Positions 24,163 to 33,732 of a stretch of DNA of 64,000 nt are shown piece by piece. The DNA is taken from assembly GCA_009786075.1 (NCBI GenBank), contig WQTX01000006.1:99-64098 (forward strand). The letters run 5' to 3'. The position numbers and the translations under genes were made by a program. The DNA is from Bacteroidota bacterium. GTDB taxonomy: Bacteria > Bacteroidota > Bacteroidia > Bacteroidales > UBA1715. Below the pieces are notes generated by a model that saw nothing but the letters and a program-made list of their open reading frames with translations, was not told the origin of the DNA and searched no databases. Position 1 is the stretch's first letter; each line of letters opens with the position of its first letter.

Positions 24163-25324
24163 AAACATATCGTCTTTTTTTTGCAGAATACTGCTTGTAT
24201 TGCTGTTTTTTGCGTGTGATGTGTGCACGGTTGTAGCACAAGAAGATGACTTGTCTCCCAAAACATCAATACCGACATTTCTTGAAGCAAAAATTTTGTT
24301 TGGTTCCGTTTTGCCGCATTATTCATATATGAATTATTTAAGCGAATCGTATCAAAAAGGTATTGCGCTACATTATACAATCATGCCCAAAAGACTAATA
24401 CTATATGATAGAATATGGAAATATCCTTCTTACGGCGTTGGGCTACGCCACATAACAATGGGAAATGCCGAAAAACTTGGCAATATTTCAACGCTTTATG
24501 CGGTGTTTGATGGTAAATTTTTTTACAAATTTTTTCGTTTTACGCCATATTACCAAATAAATACAGGATTGGCGTATGCTCACAAGAATATGAAAAAATC
24601 GCTCTACAACACTGCGGTAAGTAGTCCGCTGAGCTTTTTTGCAGCAATTAATTGTGGTGTACAATACAATATAAACTATGCTTCAAACATACGATTTGGG
24701 ATTGAACTTGAACATCTCTCGAACGGAAAAACTACAACACCGAATTTGGGATTTAATTCATTACTGTTAACGGTGGCGTATAAACAAGGTTTTCTACGTT
24801 ATAGTCAAAAATCAAGAATCAATGATTTTTCATCACCAACAACAAGCCACCACCGCATAAACCTCACCGCCGCCGGATTTTTCAAAACCGACGATTTTGT
24901 AACCGAAAAAAAATATTTTACAAGCGTATTTTTTGCCGAGTATGAATGGTTGAGCAACGCATATTGGTGGGGCTTGCAAGCCGGCGGTGATTATTTTTAC
25001 GACCGCAGCATTGCCGCTCGCAAATCTGCACCTTCAACGTGGAGCGAACACAAACGCCTTATGGACGTGGGCGTACATGCCGGAACATTTGTGAAATATT
25101 CGCACATGGTAATGTTTTTGCAAATGGGGCGTTATATTGGAAGTAACACGCAATCAGCCGATTTTTTTACTCGTGTAGGTTTGCGCTACGAATGGCAACG
25201 ATTGTTTGCCAATGTTTCGCTACGAGCGCATGGAGCTACGGCGCAGAGTGTTGAAATGGGGGTGGGGTATAAAATTAGATTAAGCCCCCTAAATCCCCCT
25301 CAGGGGGACTTAAAGAAACAATGA
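24149..25324 (+). CDS. Acyloxyacyl hydrolase / PagL-like outer-membrane barrel
   Basis: HLSNGKTTTPNLGFN motif (PagL-type H-x-SN), barrel strands; last residues encoded by a repeat element. Confidence 0.7.
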   Translation: MKKYKNISSFFCRILLVLLFFACDVCTVVAQEDDLSPKTSIPTFLEAKILFGSVLPHYSYMNYLSESYQKGIALHYTIMPKRLILYDRIWKYPSYGVGLRHITMGNAEKLGNISTLYAVFDGKFFYKFFRFTPYYQINTGLAYAHKNMKKSLYNTAVSSPLSFFAAINCGVQYNINYASNIRFGIELEHLSNGKTTTPNLGFNSLLLTVAYKQGFLRYSQKSRINDFSSPTTSHHRINLTAAGFFKTDDFVTEKKYFTSVFFAEYEWLSNAYWWGLQAGGDYFYDRSIAARKSAPSTWSEHKRLMDVGVHAGTFVKYSHMVMFLQMGRYIGSNTQSADFFTRVGLRYEWQRLFANVSLRAHGATAQSVEMGVGYKIRLSPLNPPQGDLKKQ

Positions 25325-25440
25325 AATTATGATAAAATATAGAACAAATATTGAAAGTTGCGGTTTCCTCAAGTCCCCTAAAGGGGGATTTAGGGGGCTT
25401 TTTTTTCTCTTCCTTTTCCCCCTGTGGGGGTTAGGGGGCT
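25283..25440. repeat. CCCCCTAAATCCCCC-family palindromic element spanning a gene junction
   Basis: Left end AGCCCCCTAAATCCCCCTCAGGGGGACTT; right ends AAGTCCCCTAAAGGGGGATTTAGGGGGCT (to 25399) and CCCCCTGTGGGGGTTAGGGGGCT (to 25440). Confidence 0.85.
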
Positions 25441-26114
25441 GTTCCTCTGATGCCTGCCTGCAAGGCGCGGGCAAAACGCAGGAACGTACCGTTGAACTTT
25501 CGGAATTTTCGGCATTGCACGTTCATAATATTTTCAACATTGAATTAGTGCCCGATACCTGCAATAAAATTGTGATGCGAGCCGGAAAGAATTTGCTCAA
25601 TAGCACAAAAATTGAACAAAACAATGGTGCCGTGCATTTGTATAATTCCTCACGCTGTGCCATGTTCAAAGGTTTTGAAAAAATTAATCTGCGCATACAT
25701 TTTTCAAATATCGACACGCTCAATGTGTGGGAAGCCTGCGAAATTGTGAGCGAGCAAGCTATTGAAAACAATCTCTTTATTAATATGCAGGCAACTATGT
25801 GTGATATACGTTTGCATTTAGATAATAACTCCACTAAACTCGCAAATTTAAACAAAGCCGGCGGTTTAATAGAGTTGTATGGGCAAAGCACAAATGCTAA
25901 TTTTGCAGTGAATTATACTGCACAACTCAAAGCGCACAATTTGCAAACCGAAAATACAACAATTGTGAGCACTACAATAATGGATTGCACGGTACATGCC
26001 TCGCAAAAATTAACTGCAACGGCAAATCGCAACGGCAAAATTTTATACGCAGGTAATCCTGTGGAGGTGATTGTGAAAAAAGGAACGGTTGAGGTATTAC
26101 CCCCAATCCCCTAA
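25329..26114 (+). CDS. GIN/DUF2807 beta-helix lipoprotein
   Basis: Lipobox LGGC, C-x-x-G-x-G...R-x-V-x-L-x-x-F N-terminus, G-x-I-x-Y-x-GNP C-terminal motif. Confidence 0.75.
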   Translation: MIKYRTNIESCGFLKSPKGGFRGLFFLFLFPLWGLGGCSSDACLQGAGKTQERTVELSEFSALHVHNIFNIELVPDTCNKIVMRAGKNLLNSTKIEQNNGAVHLYNSSRCAMFKGFEKINLRIHFSNIDTLNVWEACEIVSEQAIENNLFINMQATMCDIRLHLDNNSTKLANLNKAGGLIELYGQSTNANFAVNYTAQLKAHNLQTENTTIVSTTIMDCTVHASQKLTATANRNGKILYAGNPVEVIVKKGTVEVLPPIP

Positions 26115-26195
26115 AGGGGGCTTTCAGAGCAACGAAATAGACCTGAGCAACAGCACTTTCACTGTGCAAAAGTCCCCTTTAGGGGATTTAGGGGT
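26099..26195. mobile_element. ~97-bp MITE-like element (CCCCTAAAGGGG hairpin ends)
   Basis: Hairpin-bearing inverted ends; closely similar inverted copy at 44367-44464, including the internal spacer. Confidence 0.75.
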
Positions 26196-27480: not shown

Positions 27481-27879
27481 CTAATTATTAATTATGTGTA
27501 CAAAATTCCCGCTACCATGATTCATGGGATGTCCCTCAACGTTTGTTTCCCATGTTACTTTTTGTCCGGCGTGCAAACCTTCAATAATTTTCGTGTCGGT
27601 CGTGTCGCTTGGTGAAACGTACAAAGTAAATTTTCCGTTTGGTGCAGGTAAATTAGTTGTAAACACGCACGAATCGGGAAGATTTGCTTGATTTGAGCCG
27701 GTAATTGAATACTTAAATAAAACTGTGCCGGTGTTGTCGGCAACTACGGTACCTTTTGTTTTTTTCTCGGTTTCGGTTTTGTTGCACGATATTAGTGAAA
27801 AACAAAGAACAAAAGCCACTACAATAGCTAAAATTCCGATAAAGGCATCGCCTACTCTGTGTTGTTGAATACTTCCCAT
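27481..27879 (-). CDS. Hypothetical lipoprotein
   Basis: Hydrophobic N-terminus ending LISC, ATG start, no overlap with neighbours. Confidence 0.6.
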   Translation of the reverse strand: MGSIQQHRVGDAFIGILAIVVAFVLCFSLISCNKTETEKKTKGTVVADNTGTVLFKYSITGSNQANLPDSCVFTTNLPAPNGKFTLYVSPSDTTDTKIIEGLHAGQKVTWETNVEGHPMNHGSGNFVHIINN

Positions 27880-28032: not shown

Positions 28033-29103
28033 TTATTGTATTCTGTGGTAATGACAAAATAATAGTTTTCCGGTTTCGTCGTGCAAGTGCATTCCGTTGC
28101 CTTCACAGTAGCGAAACATTTTGCAATCGGCACATACACCTGTTTTTGCCCATGCTCTGTTACGGAAAGGTTGAAAACGATTTTGCCATACGTCCCAGAA
28201 ATTGTCTTGGTAAATATTTCCTTGATTGAAATTAAAACGAATGCTCGGACAAGCAGAAATTGCGCCGTCGGCAAGCACCGAACCAACGTTTATACCGGCT
28301 TGACAAGTATAAAAATGGTCTCGAACTTCCATTTCGTAATTACCTAAAAATCCCTCGCAACCATAGCTAAGGTGTATTTTTCCTTCTTTTCGAGTTTCTT
28401 GAATAAAATTAAGCACTGCCGTAAAATCTTCGTTTGAAAGTTGAAATTCAGGGTATTGAGCAGCTCGTCCAACGGGGAAAATAGTAAAAATACGCCAATT
28501 TTTCACGCCGATAGAAATCAAAAAATCTCGAAATTCGGCAAGCTGCGCAAAGTTTTTTTGATTGACACAAGTTACAATATCCCATACAAGTTCCTTTTCT
28601 TCAATCAACATTTTTACTGCATTCAAGGCTTTTTCGTAGCTGTTGGGATTTCCTCGCAACCAATTATGCGCCTCTTCAAATCCGTCTAAGCTAATTGTAA
28701 TTGAGTGCATACCCGATGCCAAAAGCGAATCTAACCGTTTGCGTGAGAGCAACATACCATTTGAAACAATTCCCCACGGAAACCCACGGCGATAGAGTTC
28801 CAAACCGCACTGTTCAAGGTCGGGACGCATCAATGCCTCGCCGCCTGTGAAAATTATAAATGTTTTGTTAGGATTTACGTGAGGGGTAATTTCATCAATC
28901 ACACGAAAAAAATCTTGTGCCGGCATATCGGGTTTTTCTGCAAAAACACGACAATCGCTACCACAGTGCAGGCACGAAAGATTGCAACGCAAGGTACATT
29001 CCCAAAACAATGTTTTCAGTTCGTGAAGTTCAGTATTATTTTTACGTAACCGGCGAAAAATTTCGAGTCCAATCCGTTTGCGGAGCGAAGGTTTTTTGTT
29101 CAT
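28033..29103 (-). CDS. Radical SAM/SPASM peptide/protein maturase (rSAM/lipoprotein system, TIGR04133-like)
   Basis: WECTLRCNLSCLHCGSDC (CxxxCxxC), TGGE, SLDG, SPASM CQAG...DGAISACP...CADC...C. Confidence 0.9.
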   Translation of the reverse strand: MNKKPSLRKRIGLEIFRRLRKNNTELHELKTLFWECTLRCNLSCLHCGSDCRVFAEKPDMPAQDFFRVIDEITPHVNPNKTFIIFTGGEALMRPDLEQCGLELYRRGFPWGIVSNGMLLSRKRLDSLLASGMHSITISLDGFEEAHNWLRGNPNSYEKALNAVKMLIEEKELVWDIVTCVNQKNFAQLAEFRDFLISIGVKNWRIFTIFPVGRAAQYPEFQLSNEDFTAVLNFIQETRKEGKIHLSYGCEGFLGNYEMEVRDHFYTCQAGINVGSVLADGAISACPSIRFNFNQGNIYQDNFWDVWQNRFQPFRNRAWAKTGVCADCKMFRYCEGNGMHLHDETGKLLFCHYHRIQ

Positions 29104-29106
29104 AGA

Positions 29107-29607
29107 TTATTCGTTTACCGATTTGTCTTCGCTCAATTCAATATCTTTTTGCAGAGTAAATTCGCCTTCATACCAACCGCTACCTCTCTTAGTTTTTACA
29201 GCATTTTTCCAATCAATAAAAATAGTATCGGCAGTAAAATAACCGCCATTTTCTACGCCATCTAAATCATAAACATACAAAGAATCTATATTGTCATAAA
29301 TTCCGGGGAAAGCGTACGGTTGTAATTGAAAATTACCATTTTCATCGGTATATGTTGGTAATTGAGAATTGTATTCAGTTTGTGGAACACCATATTCAAC
29401 ATCTATACGAGGAGCTTTAAATCCAACAAATATTCCTTTGATTGGTTTTTTATCGGCTTTGTTTGTTACTTTTCCTTTCAAAATATAGGTAGCTTCCGGT
29501 GTGCCGTATTCACACGGTGCTGAACAATTTGAAAAACCTAACAACCCCAACAATGCTGCCAAAATAGCATTGAAAGTTTTTAAAGTGAAATGATTAAATT
29601 TTTTCAT
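29107..29607 (-). CDS. Radical SAM-associated lipoprotein (TIGR04134-like)
   Basis: Signal ending GFSNC, then CEYGTP; KGKV...PIKGI, D-x-DG-x-ENGG, GWYEG; 3 bp from the rSAM start. Confidence 0.85.
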   Translation of the reverse strand: MKKFNHFTLKTFNAILAALLGLLGFSNCSAPCEYGTPEATYILKGKVTNKADKKPIKGIFVGFKAPRIDVEYGVPQTEYNSQLPTYTDENGNFQLQPYAFPGIYDNIDSLYVYDLDGVENGGYFTADTIFIDWKNAVKTKRGSGWYEGEFTLQKDIELSEDKSVNE

Positions 29608-29797
29608 CGGCGTTTTCTATTAATTCTACATCAACGTTTTTAGTTTCAAATTGAGCGGCAGGCGTGCCATATTCTGGAACAGGCGACGGCGCACCATATT
29701 TATAAGTAGGCTCACAATTTGAAAACCCAAACAATGTGAGCAAAGCAAACAAAATCGCATTCGCAACTTTTTTGTAATGTAATTGTATTGTTTTCAT
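29594..29797 (-). CDS. Short lipopeptide, putative rSAM substrate
   Basis: 67 aa, same NAIL..ALL..GFSNC signal as the neighbour, two YGxP motifs, 14-bp overlap with the next gene. Confidence 0.75.
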   Translation of the reverse strand: MKTIQLHYKKVANAILFALLTLFGFSNCEPTYKYGAPSPVPEYGTPAAQFETKNVDVELIENADEKI

Positions 29798-29819
29798 AGT
29801 ATTGTGATATTTACTTGCA

Positions 29820-29827
29820 CAAATGTA
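29820..29827 (-). promoter_or_regulatory. Bacteroidota sigmaA -7 element for the rSAM operon
   Basis: TACATTTG on the minus strand (TAnnTTTG), about 22 nt upstream of ATG 29797. Confidence 0.55.
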
Positions 29828-29961
29828 CTATTAAATTCTCACAAAGACACAAAGAATACAAAGTTTTTTAACTAAAAATTTGTTCACTAAAATTTACAAT
29901 TTACAATTTACAATTTGTAATTATTTCGTATTTTTACGCCGAATTAAAAAATCAACACAGA

Positions 29962-32900
29962 ATGATATATTTTTTTGAAAGCGTTCAAAGCAAAGTGATT
30001 GCCGTAGATTTTTCGGGCAATTTAGACAAACAAACACAGGAAAAATTGGAATGGCTTTTTAGCGGAGCAAAACTCGTAAATGCCAACGAAATAAGCGGAC
30101 AATTTATAGGGCCACGTAAGGAAATGATTACGCCGTGGAGTACCAATGCGGTGGAAATTACGCAAAATATGGGTATTCAGGGGATTGCGAGGATTGAAGA
30201 GTACAGCCCCCTAAATCCCCCTCAGGGGGGACTTCAAGAGCTGCAAAGCAGCTCTTACTCCTCCCCTGAGGGGAGGTTGGGTGGGGCTTCTGTGGGGGGG
30301 CTGTTCGACCCAATGCTACAACGTAAATACGAAAATCTTACCCAAGAAATTTTCGCAATCCACCACACCCCCGACCCAATTGAATATATTGAAAATATAG
30401 ACGAATACAACAAACAGGAAGGTTTGGCTTTGAACGCCGATGAAGTTGCGTATTTGAACGAACTTTCTGCAAAACTCGGCAGAAAATTAACCGACAGTGA
30501 AATTTTCGGATTTTCGCAAGTAAATTCGGAGCACTGCCGTCATAAAATTTTCAACGGTATGTTTGTGATTGATGGACAGGAAAAACCGTATTCATTATTT
30601 AAACTTATTCGTCAAACTACCGAGGCAAATCCAAATCGAGTAATTTCGGCATACAAAGATAATTGTGCATTTATCGACGCATCGAAAATCGAAATGTTTG
30701 TGCCCGAATCGCACAATAAATCCGATTATTTTACCATAAAAGATTTTGATTCGGTAATTTCGATAAAAGCCGAAACGCATAATTTCCCTACTACCGTAGA
30801 ACCTTTTAACGGTGCGGCAACCGGCTCAGGCGGCGAAATTCGCGACCGTATTGCAGGCGGAAAAGCTGCTTTCCCGATTGCAGGAACTGCCGTGTATATG
30901 ACTTCTTATACTCGTTTGGACAATCCAAACCGTTTGTGGGAAAATGCTACGCAGGCTCGTCCGTGGTTGTATCAAACGCCAAAAGATATTTTGATAAAAG
31001 CATCGAACGGCGCAAGCGATTTTGGTAATAAATTCGGGCAACCGCTTATTTGCGGTAGCGTTCTTACCTTTGAGCATTTTGAAAACGATAAAAAATACGG
31101 TTTCGACAAAGTAATAATGTTGGCAGGCGGTATTGGTTTTGCCAAAAAAATCGACAGCCTGAAAGACGACCCGCAAGTGGGCGACAATGTGGTGCTTTTG
31201 GGCGGCGATAATTACCGTATTGGTATGGGCGGCGGCGCAGTTTCTTCCGTTGCCACAGGCGAATTTAACAACGCAATAGAATTGAACGCCGTGCAGCGAA
31301 GTAACCCCGAAATGCAAAAACGCGCCTACAATGCCATTCGCGCTTTGGGCGAAATGGACAAAAATCCTGTGGTTTCGATTCACGACCACGGCGCAGGCGG
31401 ACATTTGAATTGTCTTTCGGAATTGGTGGAAAGCACCGGCGGAACCATTAACATTGACGCTCTGCCGATTGGCGACCCAACGCTTTCGGCAAAAGAAATT
31501 GTGGGCAACGAATCGCAAGAGCGTATGGGACTTGTGTTGCGCACCGAAGATATTGCGCTGTTGCAAGAAATTGCCGAGCGTGAACGTGCGCCAATGTACG
31601 TGATTGGAAAAACCACCGGCACGCACCAATTTACCTTTATAAATAATAAAAACGGCGAAAAACCAATTGACCTCAAACTTGAAGATATGTTTGGCAATCC
31701 GCCGAAAACCATTATGAACGACTCTACGCTTGCGCAAAATTTCAAAACTGTAGAAACGCAACAAGCTGAAATTGAAAATTATTTAAACCAAGTGTTACAA
31801 TTGGAATCGGTAAGTTGTAAAGATTATTTGACAAACAAAGTTGACCGTTCGGTAACGGGGCGCATTGCTACGCAACAATGTTGCGGCGAATTGCAATTGC
31901 CACTTAACAACTGTGGTGTGGTAGCGCTTGATTTTCAAGGCGAACGGGGAATTGCAACAGCACTCGGACACGCTCCGGCGGCGGCAATGATTTCGGCTGC
32001 AAATGGGTCAATTTTGGCAATTGCCGAATCGCTTACTAATATTGTATTTACGCCAATTCAAGACGGTTTGCAAGGAATTTCTTTGAGCGCAAACTGGATG
32101 TGGCCCTGCAAAAATGCAGGCGAAGATGCTCGCCTCTACGAAGCTGTGGAAGCCGCAAGCGATTTTGCAAAAGCGTTGAAAATCAACATTCCAACGGGAA
32201 AAGATTCGCTTTCGATGACACAAAAATACCGCGATGGCGATGTGGTGTATTCGCCCGGAACGGTTATTATTACTTCGGTTGGCGAAGTTTCCGATATTAA
32301 AAAAACGGTTGAGCCGGTTGTAAAACCAATTGACGATACAATTATAATATATGTAGATTTCGGAAAATCGGGCGAAGAATTGGGCGGCTCGGCGTTGGCG
32401 CAGGTGTTGAATGTACTTGGCACAAAAACACCAAGTGTGAGCGACCCTCGTTATTTTTCAAAAACATTTGCCACAATTCAACAATTGGTTTCCGAAGGTA
32501 AAATCTATGCCGGACACGACGTTTCGAGTGGCGGTTTATTGACTTGCCTTGCCGAAATGTGTTTTGCAAATACCACCGGCGGCTTGAAACTTTCAATCAA
32601 AGATTTCAAAAACGACGATGCCGTTGCGGTGTTGTTCAACGAAAATCCTGCGCTTGTAATTCAAATTGATAAAGCGACTTTACAAGAACTTGACAAACAA
32701 GAAATTTCATACAAAGTGTTAGGCGGAGTGCAAACCACACACGAACTAACAATAGAAACCAAAATCGAAACGTTGAATTTCTCAATCGACGATTTGCGCA
32801 CCACGTGGTACACTACTTCCTACTTGCTCGATTGCGAACAAAGCGGCGAAGAAAAAGCATTGGAACGTTTTGAAAATCATGCACAAACGCCGTTGAAATA

Positions 32901-33732
32901 TAGCTTCCCGAAAAACTTTACAGGAAAAATTTCCGACTATAATCTTAATTTGCACCGCAAAACAAAATCAGGCGTAAAAGCCGCAATTATTCGCGAAAAA
33001 GGCAGCAACGGCGACCGTGAAATGGCGTGGAGCTTGTATGCCGCAGGTTTTGATGTAAAAGACGTGCACATGACCGACCTTATTAGCGGACGTGAAACTT
33101 TGGAAGATATACAAATGATTGTATTCGTAGGCGGTTTCTCAAATTCCGACGTGTTAGGCTCGGCAAAAGGTTGGGCAGGCGCATTTTTGTACAACGAAAA
33201 GGCAAAACAGGCATTAGATAATTTCTACGCTCGCCCCGATACTATGAGTTTGGGCGTGTGCAACGGTTGTCAATTGATGATAGAATTGGGGCTTGTAAAT
33301 AGCAATCACGCTGAAAAACCCCGTATGGAACACAACGATTCACATAAATTTGAATCGAATTTTGTGGGCGTTGCCGTTCAACCAAGCACAAGCATTATGC
33401 TTAAATCGCTTGAAAACAGCGCACTCGGAATATGGATTGCGCATGGCGAAGGTAAATTCAAGTTGCCGTACGATAAATCAAAATATCAGATTGCAATGAC
33501 TTACGCTTACGCAAGTTACCCTGCAAATCCAAACGGTTCGGATTACAACGTGGCGGGAATTTCGTCGGACGATGGTCGCCATTTGGTAATGATGCCGCAT
33601 TTGGAGCGTTCTCTCTATCCTTGGAATTGGGCGCATTACGATGCTAATCGTGGTGATGATGAAATTTCGCCTTGGATTGAGGCTTTTGTGAATGCGCGAA
33701 AATGGATTGAGGGGCTGGTAAAGAAATCTTGA
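29962..33732 (+). CDS. purL: Phosphoribosylformylglycinamidine synthase (large type)
   Basis: NSEHCRHKIF, KAETHNFPT, HDHGAGG, GNESQERM, GKDSLS, GVCNGCQ, MMPHLER. Confidence 0.97.
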   Translation: MIYFFESVQSKVIAVDFSGNLDKQTQEKLEWLFSGAKLVNANEISGQFIGPRKEMITPWSTNAVEITQNMGIQGIARIEEYSPLNPPQGGLQELQSSSYSSPEGRLGGASVGGLFDPMLQRKYENLTQEIFAIHHTPDPIEYIENIDEYNKQEGLALNADEVAYLNELSAKLGRKLTDSEIFGFSQVNSEHCRHKIFNGMFVIDGQEKPYSLFKLIRQTTEANPNRVISAYKDNCAFIDASKIEMFVPESHNKSDYFTIKDFDSVISIKAETHNFPTTVEPFNGAATGSGGEIRDRIAGGKAAFPIAGTAVYMTSYTRLDNPNRLWENATQARPWLYQTPKDILIKASNGASDFGNKFGQPLICGSVLTFEHFENDKKYGFDKVIMLAGGIGFAKKIDSLKDDPQVGDNVVLLGGDNYRIGMGGGAVSSVATGEFNNAIELNAVQRSNPEMQKRAYNAIRALGEMDKNPVVSIHDHGAGGHLNCLSELVESTGGTINIDALPIGDPTLSAKEIVGNESQERMGLVLRTEDIALLQEIAERERAPMYVIGKTTGTHQFTFINNKNGEKPIDLKLEDMFGNPPKTIMNDSTLAQNFKTVETQQAEIENYLNQVLQLESVSCKDYLTNKVDRSVTGRIATQQCCGELQLPLNNCGVVALDFQGERGIATALGHAPAAAMISAANGSILAIAESLTNIVFTPIQDGLQGISLSANWMWPCKNAGEDARLYEAVEAASDFAKALKINIPTGKDSLSMTQKYRDGDVVYSPGTVIITSVGEVSDIKKTVEPVVKPIDDTIIIYVDFGKSGEELGGSALAQVLNVLGTKTPSVSDPRYFSKTFATIQQLVSEGKIYAGHDVSSGGLLTCLAEMCFANTTGGLKLSIKDFKNDDAVAVLFNENPALVIQIDKATLQELDKQEISYKVLGGVQTTHELTIETKIETLNFSIDDLRTTWYTTSYLLDCEQSGEEKALERFENHAQTPLKYSFPKNFTGKISDYNLNLHRKTKSGVKAAIIREKGSNGDREMAWSLYAAGFDVKDVHMTDLISGRETLEDIQMIVFVGGFSNSDVLGSAKGWAGAFLYNEKAKQALDNFYARPDTMSLGVCNGCQLMIELGLVNSNHAEKPRMEHNDSHKFESNFVGVAVQPSTSIMLKSLENSALGIWIAHGEGKFKLPYDKSKYQIAMTYAYASYPANPNGSDYNVAGISSDDGRHLVMMPHLERSLYPWNWAHYDANRGDDEISPWIEAFVNARKWIEGLVKKS
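30205..30302. repeat. CCCCCTAAATCCCCC-family element inserted in frame within purL
   Basis: AGCCCCCTAAATCCCCCTCAGGGGGGACTT...CTCCCCTGAGGGGAGGTTGGGTGGGGCT; left end near-identical to 25283-25311. Confidence 0.85.

Follow-up and report, generated by a model that had tools for sequence, protein, structure and literature searches.

The subject of this report is an operon in a stretch of 64,000 nucleotides (nt) from a Bacteroidota bacterium (GenBank assembly GCA_009786075.1, contig WQTX01000006.1, positions 99 to 64,098 of the forward strand), referred to here as the window. Three open reading frames (ORFs) lie in tandem on its minus strand, encoding a protein of 67 amino acids (aa), a 166-aa lipoprotein, and a 356-aa radical S-adenosylmethionine (rSAM) enzyme with a SPASM domain (Table 1). 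The stop of the 67-aa ORF overlaps the start of the 166-aa ORF by 14 nt, and 3 nt separate the stop of the latter from the ATG of the rSAM gene. A preliminary description of this DNA had spoken of three tightly coupled genes and had placed the enzyme and the lipoprotein in a known family pairing, TIGR04133 with TIGR04134, and both points hold. The enzyme scores 632.3 bits against TIGR04133 (cut-off 425), with residues 7–356 on profile positions 1–350, and the adjacent 166-aa protein scores 106.7 bits against TIGR04134 (cut-off 39.8). The 67-aa ORF matches TIGR04134 at 28 bits, under that cut-off and over profile positions 3–43 only. As set out below, the evidence points to an enzyme that probably modifies both small proteins at Tyr-Gly sites before their export, guided by their signal peptides.

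Table 1. Features of the operon (positions in the window).
Feature	Position	Strand	Basis or remark
67-aa ORF: mini pre-lipoprotein with signal, two X-Y-G-x-P cores, and acidic tail	29594..29797	-	ORF list; TIGR04134, 28 bits; jackhmmer E 9e-13
166-aa pre-lipoprotein, TIGR04134	29107..29607	-	106.7 bits
rSAM/SPASM enzyme, TIGR04133, 356 aa	28033..29103	-	632 bits
Candidate Bacteroidetes-type -7 box, TAnnTTTG	29820..29827	-	30 nt before ATG of 67-aa ORF
Signal peptide and proposed leader of 67-aa ORF, residues 1–27 (N13, G24, F25)	29717..29797	-	
Lipobox Cys28 of 67-aa ORF	29714-29716	-	
Site 1 of 67-aa ORF, K33-Y-G-A-P37	29687..29701	-	Sequence
Site 2 of 67-aa ORF, E42-Y-G-T-P46	29660..29674	-	Aligns with the family's universal site
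Universal site of 166-aa protein, E33-Y-G-T-P37	29497..29511	-	Directly before beta-strand 1
Second, clade-specific site of 166-aa protein, E71-Y-G-V-P75	29383..29397	-	Lower-confidence loop
Family-specific N-terminal helix of the enzyme, residues 7–26, proposed dock for the signal helix	29026..29085	-	Structure model and contacts
CX3CX2C radical SAM cluster motif, C40/C44/C47	28963..28986	-	Invariant in 47 sequences
SPASM auxiliary-cluster domain of the enzyme, residues 267–328	28120..28305	-	PF13186; Cys set reaches C350

Both small ORFs begin with a K/R-rich N-terminus, followed by a predicted helix (residues 6–22) and then by G-F-S-N-C28, a putative lipobox that differs from the classical pattern in having Asn at −1 and Phe at −3. 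Their signals are nearly identical in the core, as the preliminary description had noted: 13 of the 16 residues from position 13 to Cys28 are the same in both. At the DNA level the cores are separated by four synonymous changes, and the residues flanking them are all different. Each ORF carries two of the four (K/E)YGxP motifs that had been reported, all of which were confirmed against the DNA; Y43 and G44 in site 2 of the 67-aa ORF fall in invariant columns of the family alignment. Cleavage at Cys28 would leave a predicted mature product of 40 residues from the 67-aa ORF, the length that had been estimated. The two window ORFs hold four [EKM]YG.P motifs in 233 residues, compared with 15 in 866,273 residues genome-wide (2,238 ORFs of at least 150 aa; 0.017 per 1000 aa), and among the 14,483 ATG-initiated ORFs of at least 30 aa in the genome they are the only ones of up to 200 aa with at least two YG.P motifs. 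The operon anatomy is real, and the motif density lies far above chance. DNA identical across the whole 67-aa ORF occurs in contigs of two further studies; when further contigs were compared with the operon, no variants were found over the small ORFs, and the diverged contigs matched the conserved rSAM gene only.

The 166-aa protein is modeled with a pLDDT of 87.1 as the signal helix (residues 6–22) and a beta-sandwich with strands from residue 38 on. Its mature domain is of the CarboxypepD_reg/transthyretin-like type and starts directly after the E33-Y-G-T-P37 site, while residues 64–84, the loop with the second site, have lower pLDDT. Foldseek returned generic beta-sandwich matches only (TM ~0.4). 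A D-x-D-G-x-x-N-G loop at residues 114–121 is 86–94% conserved among the 69 family representatives described below, together with W145 and G148; from its sequence, this loop may be a metal or ligand site that hints at the role of the lipoprotein after maturation. The mature N-termini of the two window proteins would read C-E-P-T-Y-K and C-S-A-P-C-E. The surface location that had been proposed for the short lipopeptide is not borne out. The export signal of Bacteroidetes surface lipoproteins, given in one study as K-(D/E)2 or Q-A-(D/E)2 (PMC5080379), is present right after the Cys in neither window ORF, so surface exposure is unsupported. Acidic runs do follow the Cys in some relatives.

Relatives of the enzyme were collected by scanning one genome per species, which gave 143 confirmed matches; 80 loci, all Bacteroidales-like, were kept and combined with the window into a set of 81. 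The loci were searched iteratively with a hidden Markov model (HMM) seeded with the 166-aa protein, against ATG-initiated ORFs of at least 35 aa. This identified 113 family members in 75 of the 81 loci, at one to five per rSAM gene; because ORFs were called from ATG only throughout, these and the other family member counts are lower bounds. The partners always lie upstream on the rSAM strand, with a single exception (one downstream copy in locus L011), and carry the conserved signal followed by [E/M]-Y-G-x-P. Among window neighbors, the lipoprotein recurs in 72 related loci and the rSAM gene in 80. Since no other neighbor recurs in more than two, the system is a two-component cassette without a protease, transporter, or RiPP recognition element (RRE) gene, where RiPP denotes a peptide that is made by the ribosome and modified after translation. 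A lipoprotein-like ORF of 132 aa (27481-27879, minus strand) lies 153 nt downstream of the rSAM gene. It has no Pfam or NCBIfam match and no counterpart in the 80 related loci, and was rejected as a cassette member.

The distribution of the cassette is patchy among relatives of the window's genome: of 41 genomes, 7 have TIGR04134 above its cut-off and 9 have TIGR04133, with six of the seven TIGR04134 genomes also having TIGR04133 above cut-off. Both are missing from a 98%-complete genome of the same genus. Carriers of the enzyme include Parabacteroides distasonis (locus L027), P. goldsteinii, and Alistipes among the 143 species-level matches, and Bacteroides thetaiotaomicron, one of the control genomes, is above the TIGR04133 cut-off. 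In Parabacteroides gordonii (L033:4001-5065) a TIGR04133 gene contains an in-frame stop while the upstream lipoprotein is intact, and the former is either a pseudogene or a sequencing error.

Conservation was counted over 69 representatives, one per locus, each being the rSAM-proximal member of 130–200 aa; six further loci, whose members were all long, short, or cut, were excluded. Outside the fold, the most conserved residues are N13 (60/67), G24 (66/69), F25 (57/69), and C28 (64/69), in the signal and lipobox, and those of the universal site, with Y34 and G35 each in 68 of 69 and P37 in 66 of 69. Mean column identity is 0.48 in the signal core, 0.16 in the linker, 0.56 in the motif block, and 0.30 in the rest, the mature domain. 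By these column counts the signal peptide is more conserved than its passenger, which is unusual. The column of the second site (the E71-Y-G-V-P75 loop) is occupied in 30–34 of the 69 representatives, with Y in 24 of 30 and G in 28 of 34. Across the 112 unique family members, YG density is 10.1 per 1000 aa, compared with 2.56 genome-wide, and 54 of them have at least two YG. In 134 of the 182 YG sites Pro stands at +2 to +4, and in 128 the +2 residue is T, S, V, or C. At −1, 19 different residues are found, Glu (82/182) being commonest and Met (40/182) second. The distance from the Cys to the motif ranges from 0 to more than 35 residues.

The recurrence of the signal and motif in proteins with little else is a further line of evidence. 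As the preliminary description had proposed, homologous loci were surveyed for the short ORF, and members of 52–103 aa were found in 8 of the 81 (L002, L013, L057, L058, L060, L068, L076, and the window), a 105-aa match in L003 having been dropped as it was cut by the contig end. These eight share only N13, G24, and Y-G-x-P as invariants, together with a charged tail. In L060 a 67-aa member is the sole partner of an intact rSAM enzyme. The short members of L068 and L076 are identical at 60 of 102 positions, with a ratio of non-synonymous to synonymous substitution (dN/dS) of 0.19, a ratio that is 0.31 in the full-length lipoprotein next to them and 0.06 in the rSAM gene of the same loci, and their conservation is concentrated in the signal and two L-Y-G-x-P islands. 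A profile of the eight short members matched 30 proteins at E<=1e-3 among 700 candidates, and 20 of these sequences were inspected. Among the 30 are about 22 database clusters with two sites and a length of 99–105 aa. In five clusters, each about 101 aa long, the signal is followed by V-Y-G-P-P-P repeats with charged linkers, in three copies in four of them; one such protein (P0026, three VYGPPP repeats) has a weak match in 1 of 401 class-sampled genomes, and its metagenome copies are not beside an rSAM gene. In genome G116, a 95-aa two-site member is found about 370 nt upstream of the rSAM gene and an unlinked 67-aa ORF with three YG elsewhere. In L100 and L101, a 136-aa lipoprotein with the same signal and an M-Y-G-G-P site, which we read from its sequence as a coiled-coil, lies directly downstream of the enzyme gene. 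The residue at +2 is Gly or Pro in these coiled-coil proteins and in the VYGPPP members. By these comparisons, mini-substrates form a recurring class, of which the window's 67-aa ORF is a member specific to its lineage.

The enzyme contains PF04055 Radical_SAM (69.7 bits) and PF13186 SPASM (31.2 bits) domains, and C249, C267, C285, C324, C327, C333, and C350 are invariant in an alignment of 47 sequences. In its structure model (pLDDT 91.6) a helix of residues 7–26 stands ahead of the first barrel strand; L13 is invariant in the same alignment, and K9 and H27 are nearly so. The AhbD and NirJ2 profiles align from residue 33 on and leave this conserved N-terminal extension uncovered. Beyond TIGR04133, the enzyme scores 130 bits with AhbD, 127 with TIGR04053/NirJ2, and 102 with TIGR04103 (cut-off 725), which we take to be the PlpX family IPR026482; the MftC and PqqE family models match at 99 and 63 bits. 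The closest solved folds are anSME (TM 0.71) and then SkfB, PqqE, SuiB, CteB, and ChlB. A wider clade comprises 831 representatives (50% identity) at E<=1e-30, and its 79 classified members, down to 28% identity, all match TIGR04133 first; three of them also match TIGR04103 (E<=1e-40) and 22 also match AhbD. By these profile matches the enzyme forms its own large clade. The wider clade also contains fusions (P0067, P0068, P0070, P0147, P0148, and P0085): tandem double rSAM-SPASM proteins of 730–850 aa, one protein joined to a TrmK-like methyltransferase, and another in which Peptidase_M50 matches below threshold. They were set aside as remote and uninformative about function.

How such an enzyme might recognize its partners was explored by predicting the complex of the rSAM protein (47-sequence alignment) with the 67-aa ORF (66-sequence alignment), S-adenosylmethionine, and three 4Fe-4S clusters. 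The interface score ipSAE was 0.72, 0.71, and 0.75 over the runs, and the best of three controls gave 0.01. Of 80 solved complexes, 58 attain the mark applied to this score, as do 2 of 110 mismatched pairs, a calibration that is only rough here because our own alignments and riding ligands were used. Contact agreement between runs was at least 79%, and the partner pLDDT at least 63. Residues 6–25 of the partner lie on residues 8–33 of the enzyme, with the lowest-error contacts between enzyme residues 12–26 and signal residues 9–25. Partner residues 25–40 (F-S-N-C28, K-Y-G-A-P, and on to V40) contact enzyme residues 79–87, 107–113, 125–136, 171–175, 202–206, 246–250, 258–268, 285–287, and 339, next to the GGE motif, the barrel strands, and C249/C267/C285. 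The model supports a putative docking of the signal helix on the N-terminal helix of the enzyme.

A second subtype of the enzyme (subtype B) provides a comparison. Its TIGR04133 scores are about 463–472 bits, and it was found in genomes G004, G005, and G010, and on contig C84 of the window's own genome. Its N-terminal helix shares 8–10 of 26–27 residues with that of subtype A, compared with 150–159 of 321–323 in the core. The subtype-B partners are about 121 aa long, with a different signal and with Y-G-T-P directly after the lipobox Cys, and in G004 and G010 the enzyme gene stands directly behind the partner gene. The N-terminal helix and the partner signal thus appear to co-vary between subtypes A and B, in a qualitative sense. 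The copy in the window's genome (C84:6167-7201, L105; 462.8 bits) is without an adjoining lipoprotein, and a 153-aa lipoprotein-like ORF with Y-G-P-G-P straight after the lipobox Cys is found on another contig (C49:5951-6412); judged by sequence, these two may be an unlinked enzyme–substrate pair.

We propose, with a probability of about 60%, that the enzyme carries out a signal-guided modification of pre-lipoproteins at Tyr-Gly before export and that the 67-aa ORF is a minimal second substrate. The cytoplasmic TIGR04133 enzyme would bind newly made pre-lipoproteins by their signal helix (N-x-x-L-x-x-L-L-x-L-x-G-F), using its own N-terminal helix, residues 7–26, as the docking surface. The segment after the lipobox Cys would be threaded into the barrel, where radical chemistry would take place at the Tyr-Gly of X-Y-G-x-P. 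Export would follow, the signal, which would double as the leader, would be removed at the lipobox Cys, and the Cys would be lipidated. Modification is placed before export because rSAM enzymes need the cytoplasm. The substrates would be the 166-aa beta-sandwich lipoprotein and the 67-aa ORF, the latter being little beyond a leader and two cores. The suggestion of the preliminary description that the conserved signal may double as a recognition leader is plausible in the light of its column identity, the complex model, and the retention of its core between the two window ORFs. Its further suggestion, that the enzyme acts at YG sites, has gained ground: these sites are very probably the target, because Tyr and Gly are each conserved in 68 of 69 representatives, are kept in domain-less ORFs, and are modeled in one case in the active-site region. 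The strongest argument is that the signal and X-Y-G-x-P are common to everything found beside the enzyme. Since the residues adjoining Y-G vary widely, the reaction probably involves only the Tyr/Gly unit, as far as sequence comparison can tell.

Several observations weigh against this proposal. Four loci (L026, L051, L064, and L070) have an rSAM gene and no partner in their flanks, where the search included six-frame, stop-to-stop translation; the other two memberless loci are without upstream DNA. Five of the 113 members are without any YG, four of these being distal paralogues, and the sole partner in L048 has Y-P in place of Y-G. Because L048 and five near-duplicates were missing from the 63 sequences aligned for folding (A1), the 'invariant Y34 G35' seen there is slightly flattering, and the counts over the 69 representatives are to be preferred. 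Three-repeat VYGPPP ORFs in L094, L097, and L098 have unrelated neighbors, with no rSAM gene within 2.5 kb. In the full-length proteins, the conservation of the site could be partly structural, as the site abuts beta-strand 1 in the fold model. In the best run of the complex prediction, site 1 and not the family-aligned site 2 lies in the confident interface; the score could reflect generic helix–helix docking, since unrelated proteins, and not further hydrophobic signal peptides, served as controls. We know of no precedent for a Sec/signal peptidase II (SPase II) signal as the leader of an rSAM enzyme, and leader binding would have to compete with the targeting machinery. Member counts are subject to the restriction to ATG starts, and among candidates drawn from 5.8 billion proteins, the window's 67-aa ORF has no homologue of the same length other than itself. 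Conservation can therefore be shown for the mini-substrate class only.

The last point also bears on an improbable alternative, in which the 67-aa ORF stems from a partial duplication of the lipoprotein gene, is decaying, and has no function, and only the 166-aa protein matters. The preliminary description had itself named an unconserved, truncated duplicate as the outcome that would undo its case, and part of that concern stands, in that the ORF lacks a same-length homologue, falls under the TIGR04134 cut-off, and belongs to an operon that is wholly absent from genomes of the same genus. The other part does not. The 14-nt overlap with the next start leaves no room for a domain to follow, so this compact ORF is no remnant of a frameshift. 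It is not a recent copy either, because the flanks of its signal are all different from those of the 166-aa ORF while the core is kept at 13 of 16 residues with four synonymous changes. It also retains the class invariants (N13, G24, Y, G, and P) and has a second YG site, and analogous short ORFs occur in several lineages under purifying selection, including the sole partner of an intact enzyme in L060. A very improbable alternative gives the lipoprotein another part to play, as a working partner or product-binding protein for an enzyme that acts on a small molecule or cofactor, with the conservation of YGxP and signal arising from folding, sorting, or SPase II. Such an enzyme would suit the tetrapyrrole families (AhbD, NirJ) that are the top named matches after TIGR04133, and the position of the site against strand 1 and the D-x-D-G-x-x-N-G loop, which could bind metal or ligand, are compatible with it. 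Yet the lipoprotein ends up outside the cytoplasm and the enzyme inside, so the two can meet only before export; the motif is kept in domain-less members; the complex model threads a site into the barrel; and cofactor-pathway genes are not conserved nearby in the 80 related loci. A lipoprotein sorting signal was rejected as an explanation of X-Y-G-x-P, given its repetition and its variable distance from the Cys, both of which are unlike such a signal.

If modification at Tyr-Gly is accepted, its chemistry may be considered separately. Tyramine excision at X-Y-G by a splicease is the leading single candidate, held tentatively. Spliceases are described in three reports as rSAM-SPASM enzymes that cut a tyramine equivalent from X-Y-G (PMC11414181, PMC9811515, PMC10533398), and the splice tag of PlpA2, ...P-(L/G)-Y-G-L-P-I in Table 1 of one of them (PMC10533398), reads X-Y-G-x-P like the motif here. 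According to the same literature, splicing is proven at M-Y-G and L-Y-G, and Met ranks second among the X residues here; precursors with several YG-rich cores are the hallmark by which spliceases are found; and binary spliceases have been modeled with leader-helix binding (PMC11414181), the same logic as in our model of the enzyme with the 67-aa ORF. The variability at −1 and +2, Gly and Pro included, argues against side-chain cross-links and fits a reaction at Tyr-Gly only. On the other side, the enzyme is nearer to AhbD and NirJ2 than to TIGR04103 by profile score, and TIGR04103 is also matched by 3 of the 79 classified clade members, compared with 22 for AhbD. The HMM placement proposed in the preliminary description has thus turned out neutral to mildly negative, with the enzyme in a clade of its own. 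The InterPro family of PlpX is IPR026482 (PMC11002830). Distance from PlpX does not exclude splicing, because spliceases are reported across rSAM-SPASM diversity. Furthermore, the commonest X here is Glu, and the sole acidic-X site met in that literature, D-Y-G in RcsA, is unspliced; there is no splicease structure among the solved folds for comparison; and the literature search found no paper linking spliceases to the TIGR04133 family, the listing of the 2022 census lying outside that search. That census, as summarized in a review, searched around all rSAM-SPASM proteins of UniProt reference proteomes for YG-rich neighbors and gave candidates in 189 genera; 939 predicted systems are attributed to Scott et al., Chem 2022 (per PMC10533398). 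TIGR04133 may already be listed there.

A different radical reaction at the same Tyr/Gly site, with the same recognition, is a possibility we likewise hold with reserve; it could be epimerization, C–H hydroxylation or desaturation, or a Tyr cross-link of the PqqE, MftC, or three-residue-cyclophane kind. New rSAM-SPASM chemistries are common, the nearest solved folds span several of them, and the Tyr-directed MftC and PqqE models match the enzyme. Three-residue cyclophanes join Tyr to the C-beta at +2, and the T, S, V, or C found there in 128 of 182 sites would suit such a link. However, since +2 can be Gly or Pro, as in the coiled-coil and VYGPPP members, and X takes 19 residues, a fixed side-chain partner is unlikely, and the invariant Gly is unneeded for most of these reactions. 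A thioether at the lipobox Cys was also considered and rejected, as multi-repeat substrates do not have a Cys per repeat and the thiol is required for lipidation. The most far-reaching interpretation, which we regard as doubtful, is that TIGR04133 is a large, unrecognized branch of tyramine spliceases with a Sec/lipoprotein signal as RiPP leader, placing lipid-anchored proteins and ketoamide lipopeptides of 25–75 residues in the envelope of gut and termite-gut Bacteroidales. If so, the product of the window's 67-aa ORF would be a lipopeptide with two warheads, alpha-ketoamides that trap proteases; the system would then be the first native setting for spliceotides and the first RiPP with SPase II as leader peptidase. 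The protease-inhibitor warhead is conditional on splicing.

The regulation of the operon can be addressed in part from the surrounding DNA. A single promoter had been proposed, and this stands weakly. TAnnTTTG is the Bacteroidetes-type promoter consensus, and one such box precedes the 67-aa ORF (Table 1), with TTTG elements also 48–65 nt upstream of its ATG; because the motif is frequent in the window (0.70 per kb per strand), it is weak promoter evidence. A sigma-70 scan found nothing upstream of the operon, and its matches were at or below shuffle expectation. No terminator-like site was found between the rSAM gene and the next ORF downstream. The spacer between the operon and the divergent purL contains, at 29880-29915, three tandem copies of an 8-nt unit (TTGTAAAT, minus strand), which may serve as an operator or belong to the purL promoter. 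Elsewhere, a GC-rich palindromic repeat is present in three copies in the window (25282-25400, 26100-26193, and 30205-30284), with 25-nt arms about 34–44 nt apart and a complementarity of 87–88% in two copies and 77% in the purL copy. The latter lies inside the purL ORF (29962..33732), in-frame as an extra 'SPLNPPQGG...' stretch. The repeat looks like a miniature mobile or REP-like (repetitive extragenic palindromic) element tolerated in a coding region.

The wider relevance of the system lies in the fact that TIGR04133 is common in gut Bacteroidales, yet functionally unannotated. If the model of signal-guided modification is right, it would represent a new type of substrate recognition for RiPP-type systems, in which a signal peptide acts as the leader and SPase II removes it. 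No natural spliceotide had been isolated and their role was unknown, according to PMC8868522. If the chemistry is splicing, the family would provide a natural context for spliceotides and the envelope of major gut commensals would bear protease-inhibiting ketoamide groups; if it is not, the invariant Y-G-x-P points to a new rSAM reaction. A sharp prediction, namely a change in mass at a defined Tyr-Gly, and the wide occurrence of the family in gut Bacteroidales make an inexpensive bench test worthwhile.

Several known systems share features with the one described here. One is the curated pair TIGR04133 (rSAM_w_lipo) and TIGR04134 (lipo_with_rSAM): both are of the 'hypoth_equivalog' type, and the window's enzyme and 166-aa protein are plain adjacent members. 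The pair is functionless in its curation, and the 67-aa ORF and other domain-less members fall under the TIGR04134 cut-off. As displayed, the definitions are without the X-Y-G-x-P site, the pairing of signal and N-terminal helix, subtype B, and the clade of 831 representatives. The spliceotide systems (PlpX/PlpY/PlpA of Pleurocapsa; the binary RhaX/RhaA and RcsX/RasX of Rheinheimera) resemble the present system in having an rSAM-SPASM enzyme with one or several X-Y-G sites, in the leader-helix recognition predicted for the binary ones, and in that whole proteins can be substrates. Unlike them, the operon described here lacks a Y protein as well as a leader of the Nif11 or nitrile-hydratase kind, X is mostly Glu, and the enzyme belongs to a separate clade (102 bits with TIGR04103 compared with 632 with TIGR04133); a Sec/SPase II signal is proposed to serve as leader, and the product would keep its lipid anchor.

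Among enzymes with other chemistries, anSME is the best structural match, of about the same length and also without an RRE domain. It too has a SPASM domain, and the short motif on which it acts stands close to the N-terminus of a sulfatase with a signal peptide, whose export follows the modification. The sulfatase motif, C/S-x-P-x-R, is absent from both window ORFs, anSME families are not among the best 25 of the 67 NCBIfam matches of the enzyme, and we know of no signal-peptide-based recognition by anSME. PqqE, which forms a Glu-Tyr cross-link and is among the nearest solved relatives, and MftC, which acts on a C-terminal Val-Tyr, are SPASM enzymes working on peptide Tyr. Both depend on an RRE (PqqD and MftB, respectively), whereas here there is none and the target is an internal, repeated X-Y-G-x-P with variable X. 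Taken together, these comparisons place the system as a variant of the rSAM peptide and protein maturases, possibly of the spliceotide systems, and not as a new category.

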